DNA of 19,401 nucleotides from a virus, in UHGV virus genome UHGV-0140152. One strand, 5' to 3'. The position numbers and the translations under genes are program-made. The notes beneath the pieces were generated by a model. The model did not search any database, was not told where the DNA came from, and saw only the letters and a list, made by a program, of their open reading frames with translations. Of the stretch, positions 177-14,071 are shown piece after piece. Position 1 is the first letter of the stretch. Each line of letters starts with the position of its first letter.

Positions 177-209
177 TAGACACAATCCCTTCTGACTTTA
201 ACAAACCCT

Positions 210-275
210 AAAACAATTTGTTTTCTGCCTTTTGTTAATTGAGATAATAAGCCACATAAGAAAACAAATTGTTTC
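210..275. promoter_or_regulatory. two AACAA-N-TTGTT palindromic operator-like sites upstream of the first island gene
   Basis: aaaacaatttgtttt (about 210-224) and aaaacaaattgttt (about 261-274). The same palindrome family recurs upstream of the genes starting at 2166, 2711, 3662, 7473 and 19365. Confidence 0.5.
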
Positions 276-287
276 GGAGTGGTTGAA

Positions 288-587
288 ATGTTGAACATTA
301 CCCAAGCCTACCAGGTGGCATTGATCAGTTCATCTCATACATCAGAGGAAGATGCTCGCCGATTCATGATCGCAAGCAATGAGCTGGATTGGGTTTCGCA
401 AATTGACGGCGGTTGTATTGTCCACGCCGGGTTACAGGATGATGTCTGGAAAGACGACTTGCGTCGATATGGTATATCCGAAGGCGCGATTGCTAACATT
501 CAGAAAGTACTTGATGTAGGCTTTGACTCTGTACATTTTGATTGTGGTGCGCCGGTCGTTGAAGGGCTTGAGTGCTGGAACTGGTAA
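288..587 (+). CDS. hypothetical protein (about 100 aa)
   Basis: Track ORF 279..587; ATG at 288 sits 8 nt after GGAG. The track start at 279 is a GTG alternative. No family recognised. Confidence 0.6.
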   Translation: MLNITQAYQVALISSSHTSEEDARRFMIASNELDWVSQIDGGCIVHAGLQDDVWKDDLRRYGISEGAIANIQKVLDVGFDSVHFDCGAPVVEGLECWNW

Positions 588-699
588 ATCTGCAAACAGA
601 TTCAAACCGTTGATAATGGCGGTCACAATTTGATTCTTTTCTATAAGAATCCGTTGATCGCCACTACTCCCCTTCCATATCTGCAATCACATCCTTAAA

Positions 700-1560
700 T
701 ATCAATAAGTTATAGTTGTTTATACAAACCAGAAAACAACTGAATAACAGATCAATGAAACCTCAACACTTTCACCCGATTTGGTCTAAAAAATTGACGT
801 TTTCACACATCACTTCTTATACCCGCAATTCTACGCAGCAGACAGCGCCACAGCGTCCAATTTTCACCACAGACGACTCAACACACTACCAACAAAAACA
901 CACGCTCAAAATCGCTCCCGTTGCGTTACACAACCATATAAACAACTTATTTTCAGGAATAACAAAACAACTAAATAACACATGCGCCATTCCCAAAAAC
1001 AACCAACCTCTTTATGGCAGGCTACCGAAAAGACCCACCTCTTCTTCCCAGGCTACCGGACAACCAACCTAACTTTCACAGGCAATACGAAAACATTCAT
1101 GCGCGCGATACCCACGACACGCCATTCCCCAAACAGCGAAGAAACACCAGAATCACTGAAACCCCAACGAAGCCTGTTACCGCAAGGATTCTCTCAATCC
1201 CAAAAGACACGAAACATAACAATCACGGGAAACGCCATTACCCAATACACGAATAACCACAAAAGCCTTTCACACACTCCAGACAAACAACTCAAACACA
1301 ATAACGAAAGGAATCGCCCACCTGCCATTACTCCATACACGGAGAAAAACAATCACCAAAACGACGAGAACACCCCATAGAAGAACCACCGCAAAACGAA
1401 CGAAACCATTTACACCGACAGAGAGAACAACACACCCAATTCACCAACAGAATTAGTCGCCGTATAGAACGTTCTGGAAGGAGTGAGCATTAACGTCCAT
1501 AGAGAGGTTGAGACAGATAAAACACGAAGAAAACACAACATGTATAGCGAAGAAGCCAGG
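700..1560 (+). other. about 850-bp non-coding tract, A+C-rich and G-poor on the plus strand
   Basis: Strong strand compositional skew. The only ORFs are overlapping low-complexity P/T/N/Q-rich frames with no RBS. Contains degenerate roughly 30-bp repeats starting caggctaccg (about 1017-1083). Confidence 0.6.
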
Positions 1561-1580
1561 TATGTATAAGTGGGGAGGGA

Positions 1581-1606
1581 AGGAGGGGTGTCGCCTCCTT
1601 TTTCGT
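1581..1606 (+). terminator. putative intrinsic terminator ending the AC-rich tract
   Basis: AGGAGG ggtgtcg CCTCCT hairpin followed by TTTTT. Confidence 0.5.
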
Positions 1607-1690
1607 ATTTATTCAACTCCTGATTTTATCCCCCGTAACACCCCTACGGTCAGCCTTCGGTCCATACAGGGGAAAGGCTGCATCCCGCTA

Positions 1691-1802
1691 CAGAAACGGC
1701 TGGATTGCCTTCGGGGAACGGCTGGAGGCTTTCAGGGAGACGGTCGAGTTGCCTTTGTGGGTTTCGGGAAAAGGCTCGATGCCGGTTCAGGAACGGCGGC
1801 GT
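1691..1802. repeat. iteron-like array, 5 degenerate copies of GRAACGGC at about 22-bp spacing
   Basis: cagaaacggctgg / gggaacggctgg / gagacggtcg / gaaaaggctcg / ggaacggcgg. The same core recurs four times at 7971-8085. Confidence 0.55.
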
Positions 1803-2165
1803 ACAGGTATAGCGAGAGGGAGAGTTGCGGCTACCCACCTGTAATGTGCGGGAAGAAGAGAGACGCTCACGTGCAGGTGAACTTACTTACCGCTGGATTC
1901 CCTCTGAATGCCCAGCTACAGCGTAATTGTGCCAGACAGTCAGCGGGTCACAATCGATTTCAGTAGGTTTTCGGGGAGAGGATTATTCTGTCCACCAGCC
2001 ACCTTCGGCCACTAAATCAGAATAATGTAAAAAGTGTACTCGGTACTGAACCTGAAAAATCACTGCCAAAACCACATTCACCGGAATAAAATCCTTTTTC
2101 GCCTTTGCGTTATTGCGATAATAACACCAACAAGAAAACAACGTGTTTAGGCAAAGGAGAAATAC

Positions 2166-2342
2166 ATGTACAGGCATCTGAATGTCAGTATCACCCTCGA
2201 TGACGTTATCCACTCTCAGGATGTAGCTGGTCGCGTGGTGACGCTCATCTCTGAAGGATACAGAGAAGGGATGTTTGATTTCCATATCGAGGACAACCCA
2301 ATGTCCGTCGCGTGGAACTGCACGACGTCAGAAACAAAGTGA
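2166..2342 (+). CDS. small hypothetical protein (58 aa, MYRHLNVSITLDDVIHSQ...)
   Basis: Not in the ORF track (too short). AAGGAG sits 7 nt upstream of ATG; the leader taacaccaacaagaaaacaa is shared with the gene at 7473; stop lies 10 nt before the next gene. Confidence 0.5.
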   Translation: MYRHLNVSITLDDVIHSQDVAGRVVTLISEGYREGMFDFHIEDNPMSVAWNCTTSETK

Positions 2343-2352
2343 GGGTGAATAG

Positions 2353-2571
2353 ATGATTAAGATGCCTGTGATGGTTGAGGTGTGGAACGTGGATTCCCTG
2401 GCCGAGTGCCTGGATGCAGTGGGGCCGGAGCTGTATCGCAAATTGTGGTCGTTCGTCCCGGCTGAAGGGGAATCACCCAAAGGGAAGGAGATCTGGCACC
2501 TGCTCAGTGAAGATGAACAGCGGGAGCTGGTGGACGCGGTACACATTGAGTTCCCGGACGACGAAGATTAA
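2353..2571 (+). CDS. small acidic hypothetical protein (72 aa)
   Basis: Track ORF; GAGGG RBS 7 nt upstream; acidic C-terminus EFPDDED; followed by a terminator. Confidence 0.6.
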   Translation: MIKMPVMVEVWNVDSLAECLDAVGPELYRKLWSFVPAEGESPKGKEIWHLLSEDEQRELVDAVHIEFPDDED

Positions 2572-2577
2572 GAGTGA

Positions 2578-2601
2578 GGCCACCAGCACGGTGGCTTTTT
2601 G
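2578..2601 (+). terminator. intrinsic terminator
   Basis: GCCACC agcac GGTGGC hairpin followed by TTTTT. Confidence 0.7.
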
Positions 2602-2710
2602 CTGTTTGCAACCTCCGGGGCAGCGCAGCGCCGTAACGCTATGCTTTGTAGCCTTTTTCTTACTGGTATTATTTACGCCATTGAGAAAACAAGTTGTTTA
2701 CGGAGTTGTG

Positions 2711-3025
2711 ATGAAAAAATCATTGGTTCTTGGTCTGGACAAAGACCAGAAGAGAAAAGAGAAGCCTGCACTGGTTGCTCAATTAACTTTGCTGGACATC
2801 GTTGCCAATGGAACCTCTATTCGTCTGTTCCGTGAAACAGCGGTGTCTTTCGATAAAAACACCTTTACTCGTTATGTAATGAATGTTCGTCGCCAGCGTG
2901 GAAAAGGCTGGGTGGCATTTCAAAGAATGTGGCCTGCACATCAGCTCGAGCTGGCTTTGATGGAAGTAAACCGCGTGGCCCAGCAAGAAATTCAGAGAGC
3001 ATCAGTGATGGCAACAGCCTGGTAA
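2711..3025 (+). CDS. hypothetical protein (104 aa, MKKSLVLGLDKDQKRKEK...)
   Basis: In-frame ATG inside track ORF 2375..3025, downstream of the 2578-2601 terminator; GGAG 5 nt upstream; AAACAAGTTGTTT palindrome at about 2686-2699. Confidence 0.6.
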   Translation: MKKSLVLGLDKDQKRKEKPALVAQLTLLDIVANGTSIRLFRETAVSFDKNTFTRYVMNVRRQRGKGWVAFQRMWPAHQLELALMEVNRVAQQEIQRASVMATAW

Positions 3026-3056
3026 TGTGCAAGTGGTAATTAGTCGACAGTACGAC

Positions 3057-3086
3057 AGCCCCGACGTCCTTACGGGGCTTTTTTGT
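3057..3086 (+). terminator. intrinsic terminator
   Basis: AGCCCCG ...CGGGGCT hairpin followed by TTTTTT. Confidence 0.75.
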
Positions 3087-3148
3087 ATTGTAAGCACATA
3101 CCTACGATCATAGAATAGAAAAATAACTAATACACTACGGAGAGTGAA

Positions 3149-3544
3149 ATGACCGTTAAACGCGAAAAACTGACAGTTGATGTTTACTATGCCTCTGAAA
3201 CCGCCGAAGGTAAGAATGTGGCAAAAATTACCGTTGTTACGTACAACACCGAAACTGGTGCCGAAGTACAGGCCAGTACGATCGTGCGTAAAGGTGATGC
3301 CTCCGGCGGCGAGTACGCGACTCAATACCAGTCCATTCTCGATGCAACTGACCCGCTGCTGCTGAAAATCGAGAACTACTTCCGCCAGGTTGATGAAGAG
3401 GTGTTTGAAACCATGATGAATATGGTTAATTCCGTATTCACCTCCAGCCTGAACACCCGCACTACCTGGATTGGTCAGTACGGTCTGCGTATTACCTCCG
3501 GCATTCCTGCTGACACCTTAATCCCTGAAAGCGTATTCGCTTAA
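3149..3544 (+). CDS. hypothetical protein (131 aa)
   Basis: Track ORF; GGAG RBS 7 nt upstream of ATG; own terminator downstream. Confidence 0.7.
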   Translation: MTVKREKLTVDVYYASETAEGKNVAKITVVTYNTETGAEVQASTIVRKGDASGGEYATQYQSILDATDPLLLKIENYFRQVDEEVFETMMNMVNSVFTSSLNTRTTWIGQYGLRITSGIPADTLIPESVFA

Positions 3545-3553
3545 TCCTCTTTA

Positions 3554-3582
3554 AATGGCGCGTAAACCTCGCCATTTTCTTA
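3554..3582 (+). terminator. intrinsic terminator
   Basis: AATGGCG cgtaaacct CGCCATT followed by TTCTT. Confidence 0.6.
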
Positions 3583-3661
3583 TACCCGATAATAATTTGT
3601 TTTCTACCTTATCTGATTTGTGAAAATGATTTCACTGAAGCAACTTAATAAGGAAAAAATC

Positions 3662-4036
3662 ATGGGACTTGATATCTACATCGAGACGCAGCCAAAAAAC
3701 GATCTGAATAACGATACATCCAGATGGCAGGTTGGCTACTTCCGCAAGTTCAATGCGCTTGTATCGTGGGTGGAGAATAACGTTGGTATGGTTGAGAACT
3801 GTGAACTTGTGGAGCTTAACCGTGAGCATTTGCTGAAGCTGAAAGCAGACCTGGATTGTCTCAATAAAGAAAATTGCAGTGAAATAATGCCCACAATGGA
3901 AGGATTCTTTTTCGGCAGTCAGGAGTACGACGACTTCTACTGGAGAGACGTGGATGAACTGAGAGAACTCACGGAACAGCTGATAGAGAATCACGATTTC
4001 GACAATAACAGACTGACGTTCTGCGCCTGGTGGTAA
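3662..4036 (+). CDS. hypothetical protein (124 aa, MGLDIYIETQPKND...)
   Basis: Track ORF 3620..4036; preferred start is the ATG at 3662, 7 nt after AAGGA. Preceded by the operator-like aataatttgttttct. Confidence 0.65.
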   Translation: MGLDIYIETQPKNDLNNDTSRWQVGYFRKFNALVSWVENNVGMVENCELVELNREHLLKLKADLDCLNKENCSEIMPTMEGFFFGSQEYDDFYWRDVDELRELTEQLIENHDFDNNRLTFCAWW

Positions 4037-4038
4037 AT

Positions 4039-4182
4039 ATGGGCGATTTCAAGAAAACCCTGAAGGAAAGAACCGAAATGGTCAGAAAGCAAAACGCCTC
4101 TTCTGTCATCAGATACGCAAGGCAGTTCAGCAAAAACAACAGACAGATTGAAGAGCAAATCAAATCAGTCATAGTCAGATAA
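4039..4182 (+). CDS. possible small basic protein (47 aa) coupled to the upstream gene
   Basis: ATG 2 nt after the upstream stop, open to TAA, followed immediately by a strong terminator. Weak RBS; not in the track. Confidence 0.25.
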   Translation: MGDFKKTLKERTEMVRKQNASSVIRYARQFSKNNRQIEEQIKSVIVR

Positions 4183-4187
4183 GAAAC

Positions 4188-4229
4188 AGCGCCAGAAAAG
4201 CCAACGGGAGCGATTCTGGCGCTTTTTTT
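4188..4229 (+). terminator. intrinsic terminator
   Basis: AGCGCCAGAA ...TTCTGGCGCT 10-bp stem followed by TTTTTTT. Confidence 0.8.
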
Positions 4230-4317
4230 GTTCTGGTGACAGGATTACTCCTGTCAGGGCTGTTTCTTTTGTTACAGACGCTATCATGAAGACAAAAAGA
4301 GAAGGAAGATCACTGAT

Positions 4318-4425
4318 AGGTCTGGGAGTTACTTCAGTTTTAAAAATGCCTGCTTCCGTATATATAAATAATAAGTAACTTAATAAATATATACGGAAGC
4401 AGGCACTGTTAAGACTCCAGAAGTG
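4318..4425. repeat. structured palindromic element, copy 1 (17-bp stem, conserved AT-rich 22-nt loop)
   Basis: CCTGCTTCCGTATATAT-aaataataagtaacttaataa-ATATATACGGAAGCAGG with flanking ggtctgggag. A near-identical copy lies at 19171-19267. Confidence 0.7.
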
Positions 4426-4656
4426 AGCAAAAATCAACCTAAAAAGACACTGAACTCACCAGAATAAACTTAACCAGCCAGTACAGGCGCTGAAGTCTTC
4501 CGTAGCAGGCATCAAAGGGAATTTCGTTAAGGTACTTCAGCATAGGGTGGATGGATATCAAACCGTATGTGTATTGCCTCTCGTTTGATGCCTCCTGAAG
4601 CACCTTTAAAAGTTTTTTAAAAGCGCTACAATGACTATCAGATAAGAGGAGGTTTT

Positions 4657-4908
4657 ATGAGCTATCAAATTCTGACGACGACAGCAGCCAGCATTACTGA
4701 GCTGAAAAGAAACCCTATGGGCACTGTAGCTGAAGGTGAGGGGGAGGCCGTCGCAATCCTGAACCGGAATGAACCCGCGTTTTACTGTGTCCCACCAGAA
4801 CTTTATGCCTACTATCGGGAACTCGCCGAGGACGCTGAACTTAACGCGATTGCAGATGAAAGAATGAAAGAACCGGACATTGTGAAGGTTAACCTGAATG
4901 ACCTATGA
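4657..4908 (+). CDS. stbD: type II antitoxin, Phd/YefM (StbD-like) family
   Basis: 83-aa protein MSYQILTTTAASITELKRNP... resembling StbD/Phd antitoxins; GAGGAGG RBS; overlaps the downstream RelE-like toxin gene. Confidence 0.8.
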   Translation: MSYQILTTTAASITELKRNPMGTVAEGEGEAVAILNRNEPAFYCVPPELYAYYRELAEDAELNAIADERMKEPDIVKVNLNDL

Positions 4909-5179
4909 GCTGGCATTTGAACGCAGGGCACTGAAAGAATGGCAGAAGCTCGGCCACACTGTTCGTGAACAATTCAAAAAGAAGCTGTCAGAGCGCCTGA
5001 AAAATCCACATGTCCCCGCAGCCAGGCTATATGGTCATACTGACCGTTACAAAATTAAGCTTCGCGCATCCGGTTACAGGCTCGTTTATCAGGTAATTGA
5101 TGAGAAGGTTGTTTTGCTTGTCATTGCTGTAGGAAAAAGGGAAAGCAGCGAAGTCTATCACACGGCTGATACTCGTTAG
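4898..5179 (+). CDS. stbE: type II toxin, RelE/StbE family mRNA interferase
   Basis: 93-aa protein with ...RALKEWQKLG..., ...YKIKLRASGYRLVYQVIDEKVV..., ...VGKRESSEVY..., closely matching E. coli RelE as I recall it. Classic coupled antitoxin-toxin arrangement. Confidence 0.85.
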   Translation: MTYELAFERRALKEWQKLGHTVREQFKKKLSERLKNPHVPAARLYGHTDRYKIKLRASGYRLVYQVIDEKVVLLVIAVGKRESSEVYHTADTR

Positions 5180-5204
5180 CAAAGTGCGCCTTATATCCTC
5201 GCCT

Positions 5205-5440
5205 GTTGACTAAATCTCATAATAACCTGAGGTCAATTTCTTCTGTTTGTGACCTCAGGTTAATTTCCTTTATTTATAACCTTAACTTATTAGGCTGCAT
5301 TTTATTCCGCGTCATCGCTTCATTATTTATGTATATGGCGACCTTATTTAATTACGCCCACCTGAACTTACTTCTTTTCCGCCTGTTTCATTCAGCGATA
5401 ATTAACGCATCGAAACGAAACTAAACGAAAGGAGTTAAAA
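5205..5440 (+). promoter_or_regulatory. cassette leader 1 (homologous to 6200-6342)
   Basis: 12-bp inverted repeats aacctgaggtca / tgacctcaggtt, conserved block cctgaacttacttcttttccgcctgtttcattcagcgat and a conserved RBS context. Confidence 0.55.
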
Positions 5441-6160
5441 ATGAGTGCGCGTCTTAAGAAGCTTATCAAAAAGCGTAAATCTCTTAAAGAACATGCAGAA
5501 TTGATAAATTTAATTGAAAAACGTTTTCCAGTCATTTCGGATATTGAGGACTTCTATTGGGTGGAGAAATGTAAAGTTTGGGATGGCATTGATGATGTAA
5601 AAGATGTGGATGATTTTGTCAGCAAGTACAACCCAGACATTAACTACAAACTAGCTGATGATTTTGCTGGCTCGTCTAAAGATGATCCGCTTCCTGATTG
5701 GTTTAACATTGATGATTATCCTAGTTGCATGTGTACCACCTACACCAACAAAGATTTTAGTAAAGCGTGGTTTGCTATTGCTTATGGCTGTTATTTCAAT
5801 AAGTCCGACGGAAGCAAAAGACCATATTTTCTCGCTGAAATAGACTTAACCAGCGGAGAGATTACAGTACACGAAAACCACAGGAATCTAATGAAGCTTG
5901 TTGATAGCGTTCGCGTACTGGATACAGACGCCCAGCAATTAACGAACAATGCATGGTTCGGACTTGATGGAGTAAAAGGGGGTATCGAACTGATAATGGG
6001 TCATCTTTTAAATGAATACTCGGACTGGTATCATCCGCCACACAATCCGCTTGAGTCATTTGACGATCCGCTTGAGCCATTTGACGATCCGCTGAAGGAC
6101 TACATCGATGAACCAATATATATGATGGAATCTTTTCAATTAGATATGATTCCAGCATGA
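5441..6160 (+). CDS. highly acidic hypothetical protein (239 aa); distant paralog of 8856..9503
   Basis: Track ORF; AAGGAG RBS. Shares ...DFSKAWF...FLAEIDLTSGEITV... and NPLESFDD with the minus-strand protein at 8856..9503. Confidence 0.75.
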   Translation: MSARLKKLIKKRKSLKEHAELINLIEKRFPVISDIEDFYWVEKCKVWDGIDDVKDVDDFVSKYNPDINYKLADDFAGSSKDDPLPDWFNIDDYPSCMCTTYTNKDFSKAWFAIAYGCYFNKSDGSKRPYFLAEIDLTSGEITVHENHRNLMKLVDSVRVLDTDAQQLTNNAWFGLDGVKGGIELIMGHLLNEYSDWYHPPHNPLESFDDPLEPFDDPLKDYIDEPIYMMESFQLDMIPA

Positions 6161-6165
6161 CAAAC

Positions 6166-6197
6166 GCCACCAGTTAACGCTGGTGGCTTCAAGTTTT
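6166..6197 (+). terminator. intrinsic terminator
   Basis: GCCACCAG ttaacg CTGGTGGC followed by TTCAAGTTTT. Confidence 0.65.
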
Positions 6198-6199
6198 GC

Positions 6200-6342
6200 T
6201 CTCATCACCTCAGGTCAAATTTCCTCGTTTGCAACCTCAGGTCAATTTAAGAATGATATCACCTGTATCCCTGAACTTACTTCTTTTCTGCCTGTTTCAT
6301 TCAGCGATGATTATTACATCGAAAACAAACGAGGAATTAAAA
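6200..6342 (+). promoter_or_regulatory. cassette leader 2 (homologous to 5205-5440)
   Basis: Two acctcaggtcaa repeats, conserved block cctgaacttacttcttttctgcctgtttcattcagcgat and GAGGA RBS. Confidence 0.55.
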
Positions 6343-7269
6343 ATGAAACCAGTATTTTTGGGGCGAATTGATATTAGTGAATTGTTTTCAGTTAGAGATG
6401 GGTTCCAATATGACTGTGATTGCCTTGAACTTAATGGTCTTGAACGTGAATACAGATTGGCTATTGTGAATGATGGTAAGAAGACATTTTCTGTCGAATG
6501 TTTTGAAAATACTTACTTTAAGCAGGTGTTGAGAATAAGACAGCATGTGGAGATGTCAATTCGGGAAAACATCAAAAATAAATGTGAGTTTCTTGTGGTT
6601 AAAAATGAAGCAGATGAAATAAACTTTGTTACGTTCACTGATAGTGGTCGATTGGCTATGCTGGAGCTATTTCAGCTGATCGTTTCTAATAACAGTATAA
6701 CAGAAGCCTTGAACAGTCTTTCAACTATAGTATCAAGAGAAAGAGAAAACACTGGCGCTTTAATTGTAGAGGAGCTAGATGGAATACTCGAGAAGATCAA
6801 GAATAAAGAGCTGATTATAGAATATGGCAAGGAAAGTAGGAAAAATAATTTACATTCAGCTTTTCACTCCCCATATGTTGAGCGTTTGAATGGTTTGGCT
6901 GCTTTTGTTAATTTGGACTTTAATAGATTTTTTAGTTCTTTTTTTACAGAGTGTGGGCTTGTTATTGTTGAGGTAAATAATGAGAACGATGTCCCCAAAA
7001 TTATAGTACATTCGATGCCTGATATATCTCTCAATGAAATTGGGGACAAACTGGAGAATTTATACGATGTAAAAAGCATGGAAGAACTCATAGAGTATCT
7101 GGCCATAAATGCGGTAGCCATGGCTGATAATGATGTGTTTGGGGTTGGTGCACTGCATGAAGGTTTTCTTGACGCCCTTGAGCTTTACGGGACTGCTCGC
7201 TGGTTTCTGTCAGGATTAGTGGATGATGCACCTTTACTCATCAATACAGATTATTTTTATTCCAGTTGA
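6343..7269 (+). CDS. hypothetical protein (308 aa)
   Basis: In-frame ATG within track ORF 6196..7269, placed after the conserved leader and GAGGA RBS. No family recognised. Confidence 0.7.
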   Translation: MKPVFLGRIDISELFSVRDGFQYDCDCLELNGLEREYRLAIVNDGKKTFSVECFENTYFKQVLRIRQHVEMSIRENIKNKCEFLVVKNEADEINFVTFTDSGRLAMLELFQLIVSNNSITEALNSLSTIVSRERENTGALIVEELDGILEKIKNKELIIEYGKESRKNNLHSAFHSPYVERLNGLAAFVNLDFNRFFSSFFTECGLVIVEVNNENDVPKIIVHSMPDISLNEIGDKLENLYDVKSMEELIEYLAINAVAMADNDVFGVGALHEGFLDALELYGTARWFLSGLVDDAPLLINTDYFYSS

Positions 7270-7275
7270 AAACAA

Positions 7276-7300
7276 GGCCACCACTGCTGGTGGCCTTAAA
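7276..7300 (+). terminator. putative terminator hairpin
   Basis: GGCCACCA ctgc TGGTGGCC hairpin; the T-tract is weak. Confidence 0.45.
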
Positions 7301-7472
7301 TGACCATCCTGTCTCCCGCAGGCTAAAAACACCAACCTCTTACCTCCAGGCAACCGACAAACCCACCTGTTCCCGTCCGGCTACCGCAACTTTCCACTTT
7401 GACGCCTTATTCGTACAACCATAATTAACACCAACAAGAGAACAATTTGTTATTTAGAATAAGGAATCAATC

Positions 7473-7955
7473 ATGAATTTTATCGCTACTGTAAACGCAC
7501 CCGCACATGGCAATATCGCTGTAACGTTCTCTGACACTGAAAAACGAGTACTTGGTGCATGGCGCGACAATGAGACGGTAGAACTGTCAGCACAAGAAAA
7601 ATGCATTATTGCACGCGACATCATTGGCAATCGTCGTTACTCGCGGGTATTTGAGAAAGCGTATGTGGTAAATTCTGGGTTCGGAACGTTCGTCTTTCCG
7701 GTGCGCTCCGGGCGATTCTGCCAGTCCAAGCTGATTGAGTTCGCTACGCAGATTTCTGTCTGGATTAAAACTCAATCGTCGTTCAAATTTTCCGACGATG
7801 AAGCAGTATCGCAGGGGATGCGGATCGCCAACAATGCAATTAAATGCAAAAACATTACGTATACCGCTGGCGTTGACACATGGAGACTGTTTTGCGCTAA
7901 CTTTATGCTGAATGTATACGCAAGCAACCGCATCCACATCCTTGATGGCGTGTAA
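7473..7955 (+). CDS. hypothetical protein (160 aa)
   Basis: Track ORF; AAGGAA RBS; leader shares taacaccaacaagagaacaatttgtt with the 2166 gene. Confidence 0.7.
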   Translation: MNFIATVNAPAHGNIAVTFSDTEKRVLGAWRDNETVELSAQEKCIIARDIIGNRRYSRVFEKAYVVNSGFGTFVFPVRSGRFCQSKLIEFATQISVWIKTQSSFKFSDDEAVSQGMRIANNAIKCKNITYTAGVDTWRLFCANFMLNVYASNRIHILDGV

Positions 7956-7970
7956 CTGAGAAGAGGGCCA

Positions 7971-8085
7971 GAAACGGCCCTTTCTCTATAGCCACCAGCT
8001 GCCGCAGGGAAATTTTCAGAAACGGCTAGGAACGCATTCATGAGCCGACGGGAAACGGCCAGGATTTTTTCGGGAAACGGCTACA
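7971..8085. repeat. iteron-like array, 4 copies of GAAACGGC
   Basis: GAAACGGC at about 7973, 8021, 8054 and 8076; the same core as the 1691-1802 array. The first copy sits in the loop of a GGGCC...GGCCC hairpin. Confidence 0.55.
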
Positions 8086-8570: not shown

Positions 8571-8801
8571 TTATTTATGTAAACTGATTTCAAATCCCAT
8601 TTCTACAAACGCTTTTAACATTAAAAATATATCAGCGTCGTTCACGTCTGCTTTTTTCCGCTCCTGGTCGCTCAATAAGTCAATTTTGCGCGTCGTTTCG
8701 TCTATAAGCTCGACTGCGCGCCCAGCGTAACCAGCGATCCCAGCGATGCGATTAACATAATATTCATTATGGACGTTAACGCCAGCGATTAAAATAATCA
8801 T
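8571..8801 (-). CDS. small hypothetical protein (76 aa)
   Basis: Track ORF; AAGGAG RBS on the minus strand immediately after the 8824-8841 hairpin. Confidence 0.6.
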   Translation of the reverse strand: MIILIAGVNVHNEYYVNRIAGIAGYAGRAVELIDETTRKIDLLSDQERKKADVNDADIFLMLKAFVEMGFEISLHK

Positions 8802-8823
8802 GCTTTAAAAACTCCTTTAAATG

Positions 8824-8841
8824 CGCCCATATTTGGGCGCA
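8824..8841. repeat. hairpin GCGCCCATATTTGGGCGC (identical copy at 9577-9594)
   Basis: Perfect 7-bp stem between the stop of 8856..9503 and the RBS of 8571..8801. Confidence 0.6.
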
Positions 8842-8855
8842 TGATTTATATGGTA

Positions 8856-9503
8856 TTATTCAAAATATGGAAATGCAGAATTTTCTTCATGATCTAATAC
8901 GAAAGTTTTTTCATTAATATAATTTGGCGCATTATCGCCAAATGATTCTAGTGGTTCGAGATGATTGAAATCATCTTTTTTAATAAAGTAGGATATATAA
9001 TAGATACCATCGTGTAAATCAGCCAAACCACACCAAATATAATAGCCAATAGGATAACATGCAGGACCACGATTCACATAAACTGTAATTTTTCCGCTTA
9101 ATAAATCCATCTCAGCAAAAAAAGCTAATCCGCTTTTTTCCTCTTCTCCTTCTTTTTCTCTGATTTTTCCGTTTAGAACGTCAGCACTTTGAATAAACCA
9201 CGCTCTAGTAAAATCCGCGTTAACATATGTAGCAAATTCGCCAAAGTCGCAATTTTTGCGCAAGTTGGGTAAATCCTCGATTAAATCGAGATTGATATTT
9301 AATTGCGCTGTATTTTCAGCAATAATTAGCTCTGCTTTCGTTAATTCCGTGTTATTAAATTCTGGCTTTTTTTCTGGTAATTTGTGCACTACTTCTTTGA
9401 TTTTGTCAGCGAATTTAATTTTTGATTTAATCAATGGAAGACGAGATTCAGCCATCTCTACGAAAGCAGAGATAAAAGATTCGCAAACAGTAAAAGTTTT
9501 CAT
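8856..9503 (-). CDS. hypothetical protein (215 aa); distant paralog of 5441..6160
   Basis: Track ORF; GAGGAA RBS. Shares ...DFTRAWF...FFAEMDLLSGKITV... and EPLESFGD with 5441..6160. Confidence 0.75.
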   Translation of the reverse strand: MKTFTVCESFISAFVEMAESRLPLIKSKIKFADKIKEVVHKLPEKKPEFNNTELTKAELIIAENTAQLNINLDLIEDLPNLRKNCDFGEFATYVNADFTRAWFIQSADVLNGKIREKEGEEEKSGLAFFAEMDLLSGKITVYVNRGPACYPIGYYIWCGLADLHDGIYYISYFIKKDDFNHLEPLESFGDNAPNYINEKTFVLDHEENSAFPYFE

Positions 9504-9536
9504 ATTAAATTCCTCAATTAAAATCTGAACCAGATG

Positions 9537-9594
9537 AATAAAGCTAATATTAGCTTTATTCCGAGTTTTATCTCATGCGCCCATATTTGGGCGC
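9537..9594. repeat. perfect 24-bp palindrome plus second copy of the GCGCCCATATTTGGGCGC hairpin
   Basis: AATAAAGCTAATATTAGCTTTATT (9537-9560) and gcgcccatatttgggcgc (9577-9594), between the genes at 9608..10258 and 8856..9503. Confidence 0.6.
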
Positions 9595-9607
9595 TTGATT
9601 CCATTAA

Positions 9608-10258
9608 TTACGCTTTAAAAGCATCAGCTAGATAATTGTAGAAATCTTTTTTAATGAAGCGATATTGTTGAGTACCAGCTTTGGCGCTTCCCATTCCTTT
9701 GACTTTCTCAACAAGTCCGAGACGTTCGCAAAGATTGATTAGCTGGTTAGCTTGAGTATAGCCAGCGTCTAAGCGTAAATCATTTGCTCGCTTAACTTCA
9801 TTCATTAAATCAAAAACAGCGCCATTAGTAAAAACTTCTACTTCGTCTTTGATCATGTGAACAAGTGCAAACACGCGTGATCCGCTCATATCGTCTTTGG
9901 AGTACTCGCATTTACCAGCTTTGATAGATTTAACCAGATAAACTAATTTTTCCAGTGAGTAACTGTTAGTCATCGCTTCGCGGAAAAACACTTCTGGTGC
10001 TTGTTTGCTTGCTTTAATCGCAAAGTAAAACACAGCAGACAATTTTTCGTCGTTAACAGCAGACAAAATGTTATTAGAGAAATATTTTAACTTTGTAGAA
10101 GCAGCGCGAAGATTATCTTTATCGTTTTTGGTCAGCGCGCCAGTGCTATTAAGAAGTTCATTCTTTTGCCCCAAGTCGTTAGCTTTTGCACCCAGCTCAG
10201 CAGCAACAATATTAGCAGCTTCAACGATGTTTTTTTTAGATAATATAATGTTGGTCAT
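9608..10258 (-). CDS. hypothetical protein (216 aa)
   Basis: Track ORF; AGGA RBS about 9 nt upstream on the minus strand. No family recognised. Confidence 0.7.
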   Translation of the reverse strand: MTNIILSKKNIVEAANIVAAELGAKANDLGQKNELLNSTGALTKNDKDNLRAASTKLKYFSNNILSAVNDEKLSAVFYFAIKASKQAPEVFFREAMTNSYSLEKLVYLVKSIKAGKCEYSKDDMSGSRVFALVHMIKDEVEVFTNGAVFDLMNEVKRANDLRLDAGYTQANQLINLCERLGLVEKVKGMGSAKAGTQQYRFIKKDFYNYLADAFKA

Positions 10259-10512
10259 GATTTCAATCCTTAGATCAAATTAGAAAATTTATTTCGTTCT
10301 ATCGTTAGCGTGTTCGCTTTCGACGAGTTCAATTATCGATACGCAAAAAAAGATTGCAAGTGTTTTTTCTTAGTTTTTTACAGGGACGAAAGTCCTAGAA
10401 ATAAAAGCGAGATCGTCGAAGGTGTTCCCTAAATAAATAATCTACTCCGGCTTTTAACCTTATATATTTATACGGAGTGGAATAGGGGGTATTAAATGAA
10501 TGGCGTGTAAAA

Positions 10513-10538
10513 TAATAACCGGACTTAGCCGGTTATTA
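10513..10538 (-). terminator. putative terminator of the minus-strand block
   Basis: TAATAACCGG acttag CCGGTTATTA 10-bp stem just past the stop of 10550..11113, with a T-rich run following on the minus strand. Confidence 0.5.
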
Positions 10539-10549
10539 CCCTTATAGAT

Positions 10550-11113
10550 TTAAAATGGAAGGATTCGGTCAACCCAATCGAAGAGAACAATCATTCTTGC
10601 ATGTTCCCTGATTTTCATCGTCACCTGACAAGCATCAACGCCTAACGACACTCCCTCTATTTCACGGCCATCCGCCATGTAGACCCTTATAGATCTGCCG
10701 TTTTGATGAGCTTTGCGACATATCTTAAAAAAGTCACGACGTGATGGCTGGTTGTTCACGTAGTCAGGATGTACGGTAAGCCTGTCCGCAAAGTCCCCAT
10801 CTACTTCTGGAGGTATAATCGTTTCTATAGAGCTAACTTTCCCAAGAGGAAGACGAACTCGACGCTCTTTGCTTCTTGGAACGGGTGATAGATCAAGTTT
10901 GTTGCGTGATGGTAGTGTTCCCTGTACATACATGTTGAATACCTGTCCATCTTCCATCGTGACTTTTACAGGAACAGAGTGTGCCCTCCAGAACATCAAG
11001 GTATGTTCCACATTAGAATAGTCTCGCGGCCATACTTCAGCCGGTATGCCGTATGTAATATCTTTCGTCGTCATATCATTATAAAGTGGTTGGCAATATG
11101 TCCATTGTACCAT
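10550..11113 (-). CDS. hypothetical protein (187 aa; possibly 174 aa from an internal ATG at about 11074)
   Basis: Track ORF. The 11113 start overlaps the lipoprotein gene by 35 nt; the alternative ATG lies a few nt after the lipoprotein stop. No clear RBS for either. Confidence 0.55.
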   Translation of the reverse strand: MVQWTYCQPLYNDMTTKDITYGIPAEVWPRDYSNVEHTLMFWRAHSVPVKVTMEDGQVFNMYVQGTLPSRNKLDLSPVPRSKERRVRLPLGKVSSIETIIPPEVDGDFADRLTVHPDYVNNQPSRRDFFKICRKAHQNGRSIRVYMADGREIEGVSLGVDACQVTMKIREHARMIVLFDWVDRILPF

Positions 11114-11498
11114 CCCAGGTAGTGAAAACCCGATATGTTTTCGAGTCGCCCTGCTTTAGCTTTATTTCTCGTTCCATCCTGGAGGGGTTAAATGCGCAAA
11201 GACCTGAACTTTCAATTGATGTCCCAACGATCCACTCTCCTTCGTTAAGGTAGAAAGTTGCTTTTTCACCAGGTTCTAGCTTTGCAACCGTTTCTCCATT
11301 GATGAAAATGGAAGCGTTACATGCAGAACCAACCAGCCCTTTGTCTCGAACTATTGTTAAACTAGACTCATGTGGTGTTTGATATTTAAATATTCTGCTT
11401 TGAGGTGCATCCTTTGCCTTTGAAACAGATATAGACGAAGACGAACATCCAATTAGTGATGTGGTTAGTGTTAGAATAATTAGGTTTGTTACTTTCAT
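11079..11498 (-). CDS. putative lipoprotein (139 aa)
   Basis: N-terminus MKVTNLIILTLTTSLIGCSSS has a hydrophobic core and an L-I-G-C lipobox, indicating a signal peptidase II substrate. Confidence 0.7.
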   Translation of the reverse strand: MKVTNLIILTLTTSLIGCSSSSISVSKAKDAPQSRIFKYQTPHESSLTIVRDKGLVGSACNASIFINGETVAKLEPGEKATFYLNEGEWIVGTSIESSGLCAFNPSRMEREIKLKQGDSKTYRVFTTWDGTMDILPTTL

Positions 11499-11514
11499 AT
11501 TTGTCTGACTATGA

Positions 11515-12066
11515 TTAATAGTTAACTTGGGTTCTGTTGTAAATGTCTATTAAGAAATCGTCCTGCTTTATGTTTTTACAGGTTTTGTCGAAGGTTAATT
11601 CACCTGATAATATGCAGGCGTTGTATTTTTCGATAAAAATATTTAATGCCTGCCAATTTTTGAAAAGAAAAGAGAAACCATATGACGACTCGCTGCCGTT
11701 TATCAACCCTCGTGCGCTGGGATATTTGTATAAATTTGAATGTAGCTCTAATTTACCAGGGGCAACGTCGCCACAGGAATTCATAATGACGAACATTTTG
11801 GATATATCAAAAGGATAAAAAACTATGCCGCAATTTGTCCTGTTGCCTTTAATATCCTTCACGTAAATATAGTGCTCGTAACAATCTTTACGCGAGGCAT
11901 TTAACCTGTATTGTATTAGTTTGTGCTCTCCTTTTTGAGAGGGTATTAGGTATCGTGTACGCTTGTCTAAGCAGGATTTCGTCTTTGTACGGTATTGCGA
12001 CATACTGCTCTTTATTTCCGCTGCACTTAGAAAGTTCTCATTAAAAGGCAAATGTCCCATTTGCAC
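11515..12066 (-). CDS. hypothetical protein (183 aa) homologous to the N-terminal domain of the HNH protein at 12312..13292
   Basis: GGAGG RBS 5 nt upstream. ...YGFSFLFKNWQALNIFIEKYNACILSGEL aligns with ...LGYSFAFKNRLSIEMFLITLIDYIDSGKI of the HNH protein. No nuclease motif. Confidence 0.7.
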   Translation of the reverse strand: MQMGHLPFNENFLSAAEIKSSMSQYRTKTKSCLDKRTRYLIPSQKGEHKLIQYRLNASRKDCYEHYIYVKDIKGNRTNCGIVFYPFDISKMFVIMNSCGDVAPGKLELHSNLYKYPSARGLINGSESSYGFSFLFKNWQALNIFIEKYNACILSGELTFDKTCKNIKQDDFLIDIYNRTQVNY

Positions 12067-12152
12067 CTCCGGTTCTTAAGCATAGATAAGCCTACAAAAT
12101 TAATTCAGTCGATCAAGATCTTTTTTCAGCCGGAAGTTTATGTATCAAGAAG

Positions 12153-12168
12153 TGTGATCAAGTTCACA
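12153..12168. promoter_or_regulatory. perfect CRP-consensus-like palindrome TGTGA-N6-TCACA, about 95 bp upstream of 11515..12066
   Basis: tgtgatcaagttcaca inside a roughly 110-bp segment homologous to 13293-13415. Confidence 0.45.
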
Positions 12169-12311
12169 TACTGCTTTGCCAGAAGAATACCATATGCAAA
12201 ACATTCTATTGCTGTTAAAATTTAATCGTTCAGACATAAGGAAGCCCTATACCCTCGACAAATCTTTCTGGTATTGTCGAGGGCATGTTTCACATTTATA
12301 GGTAGATAGCG

Positions 12312-13292
12312 TTAATTGGTGTTTTTGTTCTTCTCTTTTTTGCTAATTTCATCACATGTAAGGTTCATTATGTCTATGTTTTCTTGCTTTTGAAGGTTGC
12401 CGACAATTTTTTTGCGCAATTCATAAAATCGCTCGCGTGGTATAGCTTCCTTGTTGCCGTTGATGTGAAGTATTGCGTGACAGCTAGGGCAGACGGCAAT
12501 CAGATCTGTTTTTGGGTTCACGCTTCGTGCATCTTCGCCTTGTGAAAGTGGGACGATGTGGTGAGCGTGTAGCAGCGTTTTCGTTTCTTTGCCGTCAATT
12601 TCCTTGCCGTATATTTCCGACATCGTTCTGCAACATAATTGACACCTGTAGTCTGCGTTTGCCAGAACGTCATTCCTTAACCCGGATACGCGGCTACGAT
12701 GTTGCGACTGGATTAATCTTGTTTCGCCCTCTATATATTCCTCAACTTCTTCTTTCTGGAGGTCGTAGCTGATTTCTTCTTGAGTCGGATGGACTTTTTT
12801 GTATAGAAGATCAAGATATTTAATGTCCTCTGTTATATATTTGGAATCCTCTAGCGAGGATATTTTTCCTGAGTCTATGTAGTCAATTAATGTAATAAGG
12901 AACATCTCTATCGATAGCCTGTTTTTAAAGGCAAACGAATATCCAAGATGTCTTCTATCTCCTGAATGAATTGGCGTCCAATGAGATTTCTCAATTTTTT
13001 GTGGTGTTACGCAGATACCTTTGCCGATATTGTTTACATGTTCCAATAATTGATAAACAGAATTAATGCGGTAAGCATGTGTTACTAAAGAATTTATTTT
13101 TCTTGTGCCGACGGAGGATTTTGTCATAACAACATGATGAGATATTTGTTTTTTTAAAATCAAATCATACGATGTAGCTTTTTGGTTTTCGCCTTTGTCG
13201 GTTTTTTTTATTAAATTTAGTTTTTTATTAGAGGCTATTTTCTCTATTTCTTCTCTAACTTCTTTTATCGTCATGTAAGTTTCTTTTGTCAT
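12312..13292 (-). CDS. HNH endonuclease, McrA-like C-terminal domain with an unrecognised N-terminal domain (326 aa)
   Basis: C-terminus YRCQLCC...LLHAHHIVPLSQGEDARSVNPKTDLIAVCPSCHAILH is an HNH motif with two Cys pairs, arranged like McrA. AT-rich gene. Confidence 0.8.
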   Translation of the reverse strand: MTKETYMTIKEVREEIEKIASNKKLNLIKKTDKGENQKATSYDLILKKQISHHVVMTKSSVGTRKINSLVTHAYRINSVYQLLEHVNNIGKGICVTPQKIEKSHWTPIHSGDRRHLGYSFAFKNRLSIEMFLITLIDYIDSGKISSLEDSKYITEDIKYLDLLYKKVHPTQEEISYDLQKEEVEEYIEGETRLIQSQHRSRVSGLRNDVLANADYRCQLCCRTMSEIYGKEIDGKETKTLLHAHHIVPLSQGEDARSVNPKTDLIAVCPSCHAILHINGNKEAIPRERFYELRKKIVGNLQKQENIDIMNLTCDEISKKEKNKNTN

Positions 13293-13390
13293 TATAATTC
13301 GACCTACTGGAATATCTTGATTTAAGAGGCTACAAATATCGTTCAGCCAATCAAGAAATTTTTTCAGCCGGAGGTTTGTACTTCAAAAAA

Positions 13391-13406
13391 TGTGATGAAT
13401 GTCACA
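13391..13406. promoter_or_regulatory. perfect CRP-consensus-like palindrome TGTGA-N6-TCACA, about 105 bp upstream of the HNH gene
   Basis: tgtgatgaatgtcaca within the duplicated promoter segment; on the minus strand it is followed by TTTTTT. Confidence 0.45.
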
Positions 13407-13431
13407 TGCAGGTGCGCTCATACACCTGCAT
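13404..13431 (-). terminator. hairpin after the stop of 13440..14006; likely terminator of the helicase operon
   Basis: CATGCAGGTG cgctcata CACCTGCATG, a perfect 10-bp stem, 9 nt past the stop codon. Confidence 0.5.
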
Positions 13432-13439
13432 GTAGACTA

Positions 13440-14006
13440 TTAATCATTCAATAATCTATATTTGCTTTTGATTAAATCTTCACCTTTTCTGGTGAACACA
13501 AAACCAAATTGCGATTTTTTGTTCAGTCGAAGAACTCTGTTATCCAGTGCATCGGTTGACGGAATTAGTGTCTGATCATCTATCCAATTTAGTAGCGTAA
13601 GAAAGTTCAGCAACCTCAACGTTGTTGTGCGAAGCTCTTTCGATATATTTTCAATGCTGGCAATTCGTCTTTCTTTTTTCTTTGGCGTTTCGATTAACTT
13701 CGCTTGAGAGGTGGACAATGAATAGATATTTTCATTGTCCTCATCAAACAACAGATGTTGGGTAAGTTTGCTAAAAAAACCTCGTGCGGATTCGCTTGAT
13801 AACACTCCCTCTTTATTCATATCATTAGTTATTCTGTACAAGAGTGGACCGTACTTCATTTCAGGATAACGTTGATAAAAGTTAAGTAATTCAAAAGCAG
13901 CATTAGCACCAACAAGAAAATCAGAAGGATCGCTGACCTTCCAGAAAGAATGATTTTTCTTAGCGCCTGTGGTGTCAACAAATGATAATTCTTTTAAACA
14001 ACTCAT
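13440..14006 (-). CDS. hypothetical protein (189 aa, MSCLKELSFVDTTGAKK...)
   Basis: Track ORF 13440..14039; preferred start is the ATG at 14006, 6 nt after AAGGAG. No family recognised. Confidence 0.7.
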   Translation of the reverse strand: MSCLKELSFVDTTGAKKNHSFWKVSDPSDFLVGANAAFELLNFYQRYPEMKYGPLLYRITNDMNKEGVLSSESARGFFSKLTQHLLFDEDNENIYSLSTSQAKLIETPKKKERRIASIENISKELRTTTLRLLNFLTLLNWIDDQTLIPSTDALDNRVLRLNKKSQFGFVFTRKGEDLIKSKYRLLND

Positions 14007-14071
14007 GATGTACTCCTTTCTAACAAGTGAGCACATCATAGAATTGGTGGATAGGGGGTAAATATGGAACG

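Follow-up and report, generated by a model that had tools for sequence, protein, structure and literature searches.

In T4-type phages, repeated promoter and stem-loop motifs that stand beside orphan genes and cause insertions and deletions have been described as promoter-early stem-loop elements, or PeSLs (Arbiol et al., 2010, PMC2839356; Comeau et al., 2014, PMC4122927). PeSL promoters are near consensus and were shown to be very strong, promoter and terminator activities were both demonstrated, and recombination can release mini-circles, which were demonstrated as well (PMC2839356; PMC4122927). Morons are by definition promoter-gene-terminator units inserted between conserved prophage genes (PMC3714127). 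In plasmids, the conserved upstream (CUP) repeats in the leading region of IncN pKM101/R46 place ArdK sites before different genes, as the work of Delver and Belogurov (1997) is summarized in a later paper (PMC6289460). Here we describe two adjacent leader-gene-hairpin units in the virus genome UHGV-0140152, of which a stretch of 19,401 nucleotides (nt), called the window throughout, was analyzed. Judged from their sequence, they are probably moron- or PeSL-like cassettes, each composed of a promoter-like leader, an orphan gene and a stem-loop, that are exchanged by homologous recombination. The gene-shuffling principle is known in other phages, and this locus is a new example of it in a different phage group. 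The cassette organization is not described in the SSU5 and phage-plasmid literature that we checked.

The best matches of the window are non-mobilizable plasmids of about 110 kb, found in E. coli and E. albertii, that agree with about 70% of the window at 92-93% identity; further matches are phage Cyrano (pLF82), PhiR41_1 and, more distantly, SSU5 and Klebsiella relatives. These matches identify its source as an SSU5/pHCM2-type phage-plasmid. The features on which the argument depends are the following (aa, amino acids; pI, isoelectric point).

5180..5440, plus strand: leader 1, an intergenic region with an ACCT palindrome pair, an AT-rich insertion of about 75 nt, the core block and the Shine-Dalgarno sequence AGGAG (5430-5434)
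5225-5233 and 5252-5260: the palindromes of leader 1, ACCTGAGGT and ACCTCAGGT, 9 bp each, candidate protein-binding sites
5361..5421, plus strand: core leader block 1, with the promoter-like GCCT-N12-GATAAT at 5381-5402
5441..6160, plus strand: cargo gene 1, encoding a 239-aa acidic orphan protein (pI 4.57, net charge -19; GC content of the gene 0.396)
6161..6342, plus strand: leader 2, an intergenic region with hairpin 1, an ACCT palindrome pair, the core block and the Shine-Dalgarno sequence GAGGA (6331-6335)
6166..6187, plus strand: hairpin 1, GCCACCAG-TTAACG-CTGGTGGC, -16.9 kcal/mol, z -3.5, the 3' boundary of cassette 1
6207-6215 and 6234-6242: the palindromes of leader 2, both ACCTCAGGT, 9 bp each
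6270..6330, plus strand: core leader block 2, with the promoter-like GCCT-N12-GATGAT at 6290-6311
6343..7269, plus strand: cargo gene 2, encoding a 308-aa acidic orphan protein (pI 4.61, net charge -22; GC content of the gene 0.367)
7276..7295, plus strand: hairpin 2, GGCCACCA-CTGC-TGGTGGCC, -17.6 kcal/mol, z -4.7, the shared right junction of the variable slot

A first-pass annotation of this DNA had reported two genes with homologous leaders and unrelated coding sequences. The elements that it listed are in place, the open reading frames (ORFs) at 5441-6160 (239 aa) and 6343-7269 (308 aa) are as it described them, and in both leaders the gene is preceded by an ACCT pair, the conserved block and a conserved ribosome-binding context. 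The similarity of the leaders was reproduced when 5180-5440 was aligned with 6161-6342 by gapped pairwise alignment: 172 columns are 86% identical with a score of 131, compared with 18 +/- 5.7 (maximum 39) for shuffled sequences. The leaders are thus homologous from the stop codon to the next ATG, except for the AT-rich insertion of about 75 nt in leader 1. The core blocks (5361-5421 and 6270-6330) are 89% identical over 61 nt and contain a 29-nt core with two matches in the window against 0.00 expected from shuffles; the Shine-Dalgarno sequence and TTAAAAATG are conserved in both. The two core blocks are direct repeats 909 bp apart, an arrangement that would permit mini-circle formation. The 239-aa and 308-aa proteins are indeed unrelated to each other (BLASTP E >= 2; hhalign probability 0.1%).

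The two genes stand in an interval whose content differs widely between related elements. We define this slot as the interval between two anchor genes:

3149..3544, plus strand: 131-aa gene (phrog_2473, PHROG 2.3e-55), the left anchor, found in nearly all related loci
7473..7955, plus strand: 160-aa gene (phrog_1641, PHROG 2.1e-96), the right anchor

The 160-aa gene was used as an anchor to recover 77 loci from IMG/VR, and annotated plasmids, phages and assembly contigs were added to the comparison (individual loci are given below by L numbers). The 77 loci have 27 gene and hairpin arrangements, which excludes an invariant locus. The shortest slot measures 612 bp and the largest, that of the window, 3928 bp. 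In 15 loci only a 124-aa gene, a 47-aa ORF and a hairpin lie between the anchors, and others have one small gene only. The commonest cargo cluster, C0, comprises 54 ORFs, among them CYRAN_110 (116 aa) of phage Cyrano; in the same phage, CYRAN_109 is the only small ORF of the slot reported at 6-fold above background (PMC9928086).

Where homology to annotated relatives begins and ends was determined by BLASTN with positions 3600-8000 of the window, and the breakpoints fall at the leader block and at the hairpins. L005 is homologous from position 6280, within the block, onward through its 308-family gene, and homology to L002, L030 and L068 likewise starts at 6280. L006 is homologous from 5372 to 6187, that is, from the block to hairpin 1, and again from 7274 at hairpin 2, the position where the homology of all relatives resumes. 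L002 matches only the block (6280-6346, 92.5%) and hairpin 1 (6159-6187, 96.6%), and these surround a 196-aa gene. L001, from E. albertii, matches 3600-5444 and 6269-8000; the two segments overlap in the leader block. L001 equals the window minus the 239-aa cassette, and loss of that cassette would produce the arrangement seen in both L001 and L102. The same core leader of about 65 nt aligns before 239/232-aa, 308/310/302/324-aa and 196-aa genes, and leader 1 including its ACCT pair stands before the 239-aa gene in the window and before a 308-family gene in L102 (62% identical) and L001. Some relatives hold just one of the two cassettes, be it the 308 type (L005, L030, L068, L105) or the 239 type (L006, L056). 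The leader of L006 is chimeric. Its 5' half, GATAACAATTTGTTTTCTGCCTTA, derives from the leader of the 124-aa gene, the cassette leader supplied the 3' half, GCGATAATTATCACATC...AGGAATTAAAAATG, and the crossover between them falls inside the promoter-like spacer; this chimeric leader precedes a 232-aa gene of the 239 family. The modular exchange at a hotspot proposed by the first-pass annotation is therefore well founded in what the relatives display, namely a variable slot, breakpoints at leader block and hairpin, and the same leader before different cargo.

We propose that the small plus-strand genes of this region are arranged as single-gene expression cassettes, each with its own leader, that in the variable ones a GC-rich stem-loop (GGCCACCA/TGGTGGCC type) marks the end, and that the two genes would be tandem cassettes in the most variable slot of the region. 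Being shared, unlike the coding sequences, leaders and hairpins could act as portable homology. Homologous recombination at a pair of leaders or a pair of hairpins, either of different phage-plasmids or of neighboring cassettes, would then insert, delete or replace an orphan gene, and the exchanged gene would stay correctly expressed and insulated.

The hairpins follow a common scheme. At every cassette end GGCCACCA-N4-TGGTGGCC or GCCACCAG-N6-CTGGTGGC is followed by TTAAATGAC, with conserved stems and variable loops, and hairpin 2 is directly followed by the conserved TTAAATGACCATCCTG. In tandem arrays a hairpin unit of about 30 nt is directly repeated and flanks the inserted cassette, and hairpin 1 is found in identical form after the 232-aa gene of L006 and after the 196-aa gene of L002. 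At the same position the distant relative L101 has a different stem, CTGGAGTTGCAACTCCAG, which suggests that it is the structure rather than the sequence of the hairpin that is kept. The first-pass annotation had assigned a terminator hairpin to each gene. Stable GC-rich hairpins are present after both, but the T-tracts behind them are weak (TTCAAGTTTT after hairpin 1 and TTAAATGACC after hairpin 2), and their function may be either to terminate or to stabilize transcripts. In all, the window has three GCCACC/GGTGGC hairpins at cassette ends. The third member of the family, GGCCACCAGCACGGTGGC, is located at 2578-2595 and adjoins a second variable slot (2064-2600): homology to L002 and L005 starts only at about 2600, immediately after this hairpin, and the genes 2166-2342 and 2353-2571 are not common to L002 and L005.

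The leaders of the two cassettes belong to a wider family with the motif [G/A]CCT-N12-(G/T/C)A(T/A/C)(A/G/T)AT, and the following elements concern this family and its neighbors.

227, 2101, 2651, 3606, 5381, 6290 and 7404, plus strand: the leader-family sites found by motif scan of the window
3606-3627, plus strand: ACCT-N12-GAAAAT in the 124-aa gene's own leader, which is of the same family
7296..7472, plus strand: leader of the 160-aa gene, a distant family member 64% identical to leader 1, with GCCT-N12-CATAAT at 7404-7425
7440-7452: operator-like palindrome GAACAATTTGTTA in the leader of the 160-aa gene
211-223, 262-274, 940-952, 2136-2148, 2687-2699, 3590-3602, 7440-7452, 14325-14337, 19287-19299 and 19312-19324: sites of the palindrome AAACAAnTTGTTT

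All seven plus-strand sites lie 34-50 nt before a Shine-Dalgarno sequence and start codon. An eighth match to the relaxed motif (18142) was taken as chance, being inside a gene with no Shine-Dalgarno sequence or start codon downstream. The strict motif has 5 matches in the window against 1.07 expected. In the 85 SSU5-like sequences scanned, 323 sites of the family lie on the plus strand and 18 on the minus strand. The layout of the motif is bipartite: a T-rich stretch, GCCT, 12 nt and a GATAAT-like hexamer are followed by a short A-rich 5' untranslated region (UTR) and a strong Shine-Dalgarno sequence. We infer that the core leader block combines a promoter with a 5' UTR and that its type is a shared one. 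In the leader of the 160-aa gene, T(T/G)GACGCCT, a 12-nt spacer, CGATAATTA and GAAAACAAnTTGTT are kept across relatives down to 66% protein identity; the length of the spacer is fixed and its sequence varies, a pattern of conservation that we read as that of a promoter followed by an operator. In the window the palindrome AAACAAnTTGTTT is more frequent than expected (11 matches, 3 expected) and is found at or just downstream of the promoter-like cores in most small-gene leaders, where it probably serves a phage-plasmid repressor as operator. Leaders 1 and 2 are without it and keep the GAAAACAA half-site alone. We infer from this that the two cassettes have lost the operator of the neighboring leaders, and their leaders probably escape the regulator of the others.

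Two peculiarities of the DNA around these leaders may be recorded. Between 600 and 1500 the plus strand is G-poor and A+C-rich for about 900 bp (GC skew -0.35 to -0.44, AT skew up to +0.55), and the annotation of L002 suggests that the matching stretch carries no annotated gene. It includes three tandem units of 30-31 nt at 996-1083 (ACAACCAACCTCTT..CAGGCTACCG) and is followed by a strong terminator-like hairpin at 1577-1603; two more copies of the unit lie at 7325-7390, upstream of the promoter-like core of the 160-aa gene, and are conserved across genera. The stretch could hold iteron-like binding sites or a long non-coding RNA and has no Rfam family. The second peculiarity is a near-perfect 61-nt palindrome, GCCTGCTTCCGTATATAT...ATATATACGGAAGCAGGC (-38.3 kcal/mol, z = -10), of which two copies, 95% identical, occur 14.8 kb apart (4336-4416 and 19188-19248). 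The copy at 19188 is conserved in L002 and SSU5, the copy at 4344 lies within the RelBE-containing insertion described below, and the palindrome could be a bidirectional terminator or a recombination site.

Several observations weigh against cassettes exchanged by homologous recombination. Recombination would have to be read from its end products only. A scan for the sigma-70 consensus did not call the leader blocks: their -10 hexamers are GATAAT and GATGAT, the equivalents of the -35 hexamer (TTTCCG and TTTCTG) are poor, and the best-conserved box, of the TTGACG type, is merely 15-16 nt from GATAAT. No run of U follows the hairpins, which may attenuate transcription or stabilize RNA instead of terminating. 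The specific 61-nt leader is rare (12 PLSDB records and 2 IMG/VR contigs). Most relatives carry C0 cargo behind leaders unlike the cassette block, the 116-aa form of C0 being without the leader motif and the 93-aa form having only the generic family type. The 196-aa gene is not a clean third independent cargo, owing to its weak similarity to the 308-aa protein (see below). A search for the leader pattern in one genome per species returned 13 matches, all in unrelated taxa, and was uninformative, since by our estimate this is the chance level for a 19-mer in 596 Gb.

Three other readings of the shared leaders and hairpins have to be considered beside the exchange of cassettes. The leader might act mainly at the RNA level, as a 5' UTR for translation initiation or processing within a long polycistronic early transcript, the hairpins serving as intercistronic stabilizers and the units not being autonomous promoter-terminator cassettes. 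The missing U-tracts, the poor -35 element, the location of all genes from about 280 to 7955 on one strand and the inclusion of the UTR and the Shine-Dalgarno sequence (CATCGAAAACAAACGAGGAATTAAAAATG) in the part most strictly shared across cargo families would all agree with it. However, a GCCT-N12-GATAAT spacer that keeps its length while its sequence varies is the signature of a promoter acting at the DNA level, operator-like palindromes flank the motif in other leaders, and an Rfam scan of the whole window returned no family; we regard this reading as unlikely. Mere local tandem duplication without a wider role in exchange would explain why leaders 1 and 2, which follow each other at a distance of 909 bp, resemble each other more than they resemble any other leader of the window (89% identity against 64% or less for the others). 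It is very improbable and is contradicted by the relatives: the same core leader fronts single cassettes with different cargo in other phage-plasmids, relatives hold each cassette separately, and the differences between the copies, 14% and the indel of about 75 nt, show that the duplication is not a recent one. Tandem arrays of variable content in which each ORF has an imperfect inverted repeat behind it are also superficially integron-like, and the hairpins could then be attC-like sites for site-specific recombination. But a Pfam scan of 19 window ORFs, which covered every large ORF of 8571-14350, found no recombinase family, and the hairpins are simple stems of 18-22 nt (8-10 bp with loops of 4-6 nt), whereas attC structures measure 57-141 nt. 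Moreover, each cassette has a promoter-like leader and integron cassettes are mostly promoterless, crossovers occurred inside the leader or promoter at differing positions (the L006 chimera and the L001 junction), and in L101 the hairpin sequence is replaced. The absence of a recombinase family, the simple stems and the junctions inside leaders led us to exclude integron cassettes, and we give an attC mechanism hardly any credence.

The palindrome pairs invite a fourth reading, which would be compatible with cassette exchange. ACCT[C/G]AGGT occurs in perfect form four times in the 19.4 kb (5225, 5252, 6207 and 6234) and nowhere else in the window, and these palindromes are most likely protein-binding sites. 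They might be the operators of a dedicated dimeric regulator of the phage-plasmid or its host, making the two cargo genes a small private regulon, which is what the first-pass annotation meant by common regulation. The confinement of the four 9-bp palindromes to the two leaders speaks for this, and so do the identical spacing of 27 bp from center to center, the position of the first site 46/47 nt past the upstream stop codon in both leaders, the conserved flanks (ACCTSAGGTYAAWTT), the about 80% identity of the sequence between the sites, and the reduction of AAACAAnTTGTTT to the GAAAACAA half-site in just these leaders. Against it stands the distance from the center of the second site to the start of the -10-like hexamer, which measures 141 nt in leader 1 but 68 nt in leader 2. 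Operators and class I activator sites are not usually placed in this way, so that common regulation through the pairs is not proven. Nor do the pairs belong to a general conserved shell, as had been claimed: among 105 fetched loci the extended motif is present only in L001 and L102, whose first site has decayed to ACCTGAGGC. The other carriers of leader and cargo (L005, L002, L006, L103 and L105) do not have the module, which is thus dispensable for expressing that cargo. The pair pattern is absent from IMG/VR and, in refined form, from the JGI metagenomes; the sole IMG/VR match to a pair was set aside as chance because it lies within a collagen-like Gly-Thr-Ser repeat of a tail-fiber-like ORF. 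Two regulators can be recognized in the window, one a FljA-like repressor (Flag1_repress) and the other an 88-aa protein that weakly matches LexA_DNA_bind; neither is linked to the sites, and no candidate binder was found. On balance the palindromes may well bind a regulator, but we consider a private regulon a possibility on the doubtful side; promoter control and a roadblock or insulator role tied to the end of the preceding unit are equally plausible. Two other explanations of the palindromes were dropped. A sigma-70 promoter with the palindrome in its spacer (TTGCAA-17-AATGAT in leader 2) is not conserved in leader 1. CCTNAGG, which we take to be a Bsu36I/Eco81I-type restriction site, has the four ACCT sites as its sole occurrences in the window, and 4 against 2.4 expected is not unusual.

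The 239-aa and 308-aa proteins have no match in Pfam, PHROG, PADLOC, NCBIfam or PDB sequences, tblastn against GenBank phages was empty, and AlphaFold2 with shallow alignments gave unusable models (mean pLDDT, the per-residue confidence score, 33.5 and 34.6). Among 5.8e9 proteins, homologous clusters number 2 for the 239-aa family and 3 for the 308-aa family, and a HMMER profile of the latter retrieved one distant relative (324 aa, 27% identity) and one fragment from 1.84e9 representatives. The 308-aa family is present in 4 of the 77 slot loci, in 7 E. albertii plasmids of PLSDB and in 3 complete E. coli genomes; the 239-aa family is present in 3 of the 77 loci and in 1 PLSDB plasmid. All cargo relatives that we examined lie in the same slot of SSU5-like elements. 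Both ORFs appear to be real genes, given ratios of non-synonymous to synonymous substitution (dN/dS) of 0.31-0.33 in the 308-aa family and 0.67 for the 239-aa protein (compared with L006). The slot cargo proteins are all acidic (pI 4.3-4.8, with net charges of -15 to -22 in the larger ones), and the cargo genes are AT-richer (GC 0.37-0.40) than the flanking genes (0.45-0.48). None of the searches lends direct support to the immunity, defense or anti-defense role that the first-pass annotation suggested for the cargo. Their acidity and the setting behind early-type leaders would fit host-takeover or anti-defense proteins, which is a lead and not a result.

The 196-aa cargo (L002, 4750-5340; pYLMB53a) resembles residues 148-304 of the 308-aa protein. 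BLASTP gives 31% identity over 93 aa (E 0.002), and hhalign aligns 130 collinear columns at 33% identity with a probability of merely 2.2%. The motifs IKNKELII/IKTKDVYI, NRFF/TRFF and VEVNNEND/VEVSINEYD and YSS-type C-terminal tails are common to both. The 196-aa protein and the C-terminal two-thirds of the 308-aa protein possibly share a C-terminal domain. Two further details concern the cargo genes. The 239-aa protein has a 7-residue tandem duplication, DPLESFD/DPLEPFD (window 6040-6100), which is absent in the 232-aa relatives and derives from a 21-nt direct repeat, CCGCTTGAG(T/C)CATTTGACGAT. The annotation of L001 (E. albertii p2014C-4015-1, which has six similar plasmids) splits the 308-family gene at 6285-7217 into two ORFs of 405 and 465 bp, although tblastn matches it end to end at 89% identity; an internal stop has probably made it a pseudogene in these 62-kb derivatives.

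A fuller picture joins several of these strands. The cassettes would be a PeSL-like plug-in system of SSU5-like phage-plasmids in which leader-gene-hairpin units circulate, possibly via excised mini-circles, and the two cargo proteins, perhaps with the 196-aa relative, would be new acidic anti-defense or host-takeover effectors that have escaped the regulator of the AAACAAnTTGTTT operator and come under a private regulator binding the ACCT(C/G)AGGT pairs. That all of this holds together is quite unlikely.

The surroundings of the two cassettes are as follows. The run of small plus-strand genes (about 200-8000) is downstream of a methionyl-tRNA-synthetase-like gene and upstream of a helicase/ParB block, in which a ParB/ABC operon at 15977-18892 is named only through the annotation of relatives. 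Its genes from about 280 to 7955 are on one strand throughout, and among those in the slot to the left of leader 1 are:

3662..4036, plus strand: 124-aa gene (phrog_7971), whose presence varies among relatives
4657-4908, plus strand: RelB/Phd-like antitoxin (PHROG antitoxin)
4898-5179, plus strand: RelE/ParE toxin (Pfam ParE_toxin 8.6e-13; PHROG RelE-like toxin)

The RelB/ParE pair (4657-5179) is inserted immediately upstream of leader 1. It is about 88% identical to a module on E. coli plasmids of about 60-65 kb and occupies this slot position only in the window, L001 and L102. Sequence of the slot matched plasmids of 359 of the 5426 complete E. coli genomes, a count that overstates SSU5-like carriage because many of the matches are the RelBE module on those unrelated plasmids of about 60-65 kb. 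The 124-aa protein is about 70% identical to all relatives (dN/dS 0.13). The center of its gene (3700-3950) has 47-78% nucleotide identity to L002 and L005 between flanks of 93-99%, and looks like a divergent allele brought in by recombination with breakpoints within the gene; that this allele is bounded by leaders was rejected, as divergence is maximal inside the gene.

Repeats of other kinds occur among the minus-strand genes. The genes 8856-9503 and 9608-10258 encode proteins of 215/216 aa without a Pfam or PADLOC match, and each is followed by a hairpin ATGCGCCCATATTTGGGCGC (8821-8846 and 9575-9600) in copies 96% identical; annotation tables list one gene of this type in L002, L005, Cyrano and SSU5 and two in L001. 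Further on, an 81-nt direct repeat (12089-12169 and 13327-13407, 77% identical) is found in the minus-strand leaders of the genes 11515-12066 (183 aa) and 12312-13292 (326 aa, with an HNH domain). Both copies hold a perfect TGTGA-N6-TCACA, which we take to be the CRP-site consensus. This pair was rejected as a second case of unrelated cargo behind shared leaders: the 183-aa and 326-aa proteins are distant paralogues, 22% identical over their N-terminal ~165 aa (E 9e-7), and the pair is thus a diverged tandem duplication.

E. coli, Salmonella, Shigella and Klebsiella commonly carry phage-plasmids of the SSU5/pHCM2 group, and these are frequent in clinical settings. The turnover of their accessory genes is usually discussed in terms of transposons and integrons, and the locus points to a quieter route, in which short shared regulatory sequences would let orphan genes swap and arrive already expressed, as in the hyperplastic regions of T4-type phages. 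A practical handle follows, which is to seek variable cargo between leaders and GGCCACCA hairpins. The return would be a short list of rare, acidic and unannotated proteins as candidates for defense or anti-defense functions, along with a putative operator pair still to be assigned, rather than a new principle.

Set against the known systems, the locus shares with integrons the tandem single-gene units, the variable content and an inverted repeat at each end, but it differs from them in having no integrase among the 19 ORFs scanned and no attC (R''-L''/L'-R') architecture, in the leaders that its units carry and in the variable junctions inside those leaders. The genes of the IncN CUP regulon include anti-restriction functions, and a regulon of this type contains its own plasmid-encoded repressor. 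Like the CUP repeats, which by the published summary are bound by the plasmid-encoded co-regulator ArdK, the leaders are homologous upstream sequences before different genes of a plasmid. There is, however, no sequence similarity to the CUP repeats, and no ArdK or ArdR homologue was detected in the window; the CUP repeats belong to the leading region of a conjugative plasmid and the leaders to a phage-plasmid, and the main evidence here is for exchange and not for co-regulation. The moron comes closer. As with morons, extra genes break a region that is contiguous in relatives, their GC content deviates (0.396 and 0.367 compared with 0.453-0.482), and the cassettes move between related phages. 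Where a moron has a sigma-70-like promoter and a factor-independent terminator, a promoter-like sequence upstream and a stem-loop downstream are present here, neither of them canonical. Morons are expressed from the repressed prophage (lysogenic conversion), a point on which the 6-fold signal of CYRAN_109, a different ORF of the slot, bears only indirectly. Morons are usually described singly and without a shared leader, whereas here a leader family is common to neighboring core genes and the terminator-like hairpin is without a U-tract.

It is with the PeSLs that the comparison reaches furthest. The host here is a temperate siphovirus-type phage-plasmid, whereas PeSLs are carried by lytic T4-like myoviruses, and in sequence the cassettes are not homologous to the T4-type PeSLs. 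The promoter-like element deviates from the sigma-70 consensus (poor -35), the stem-loop directly follows the upstream stop codon instead of lying within or beside the promoter, and the two leaders carry an additional palindrome pair. Even so, a composite intergenic motif of promoter-like element, stem-loop and Shine-Dalgarno sequence with start codon is repeated beside orphan genes in a hyperplastic region, as in PeSLs, and the breakpoints of indels and replacements lie at these motifs (5372/6280 and 6187/7274; L001, L002, L005 and L006), as homologous recombination between them would imply.

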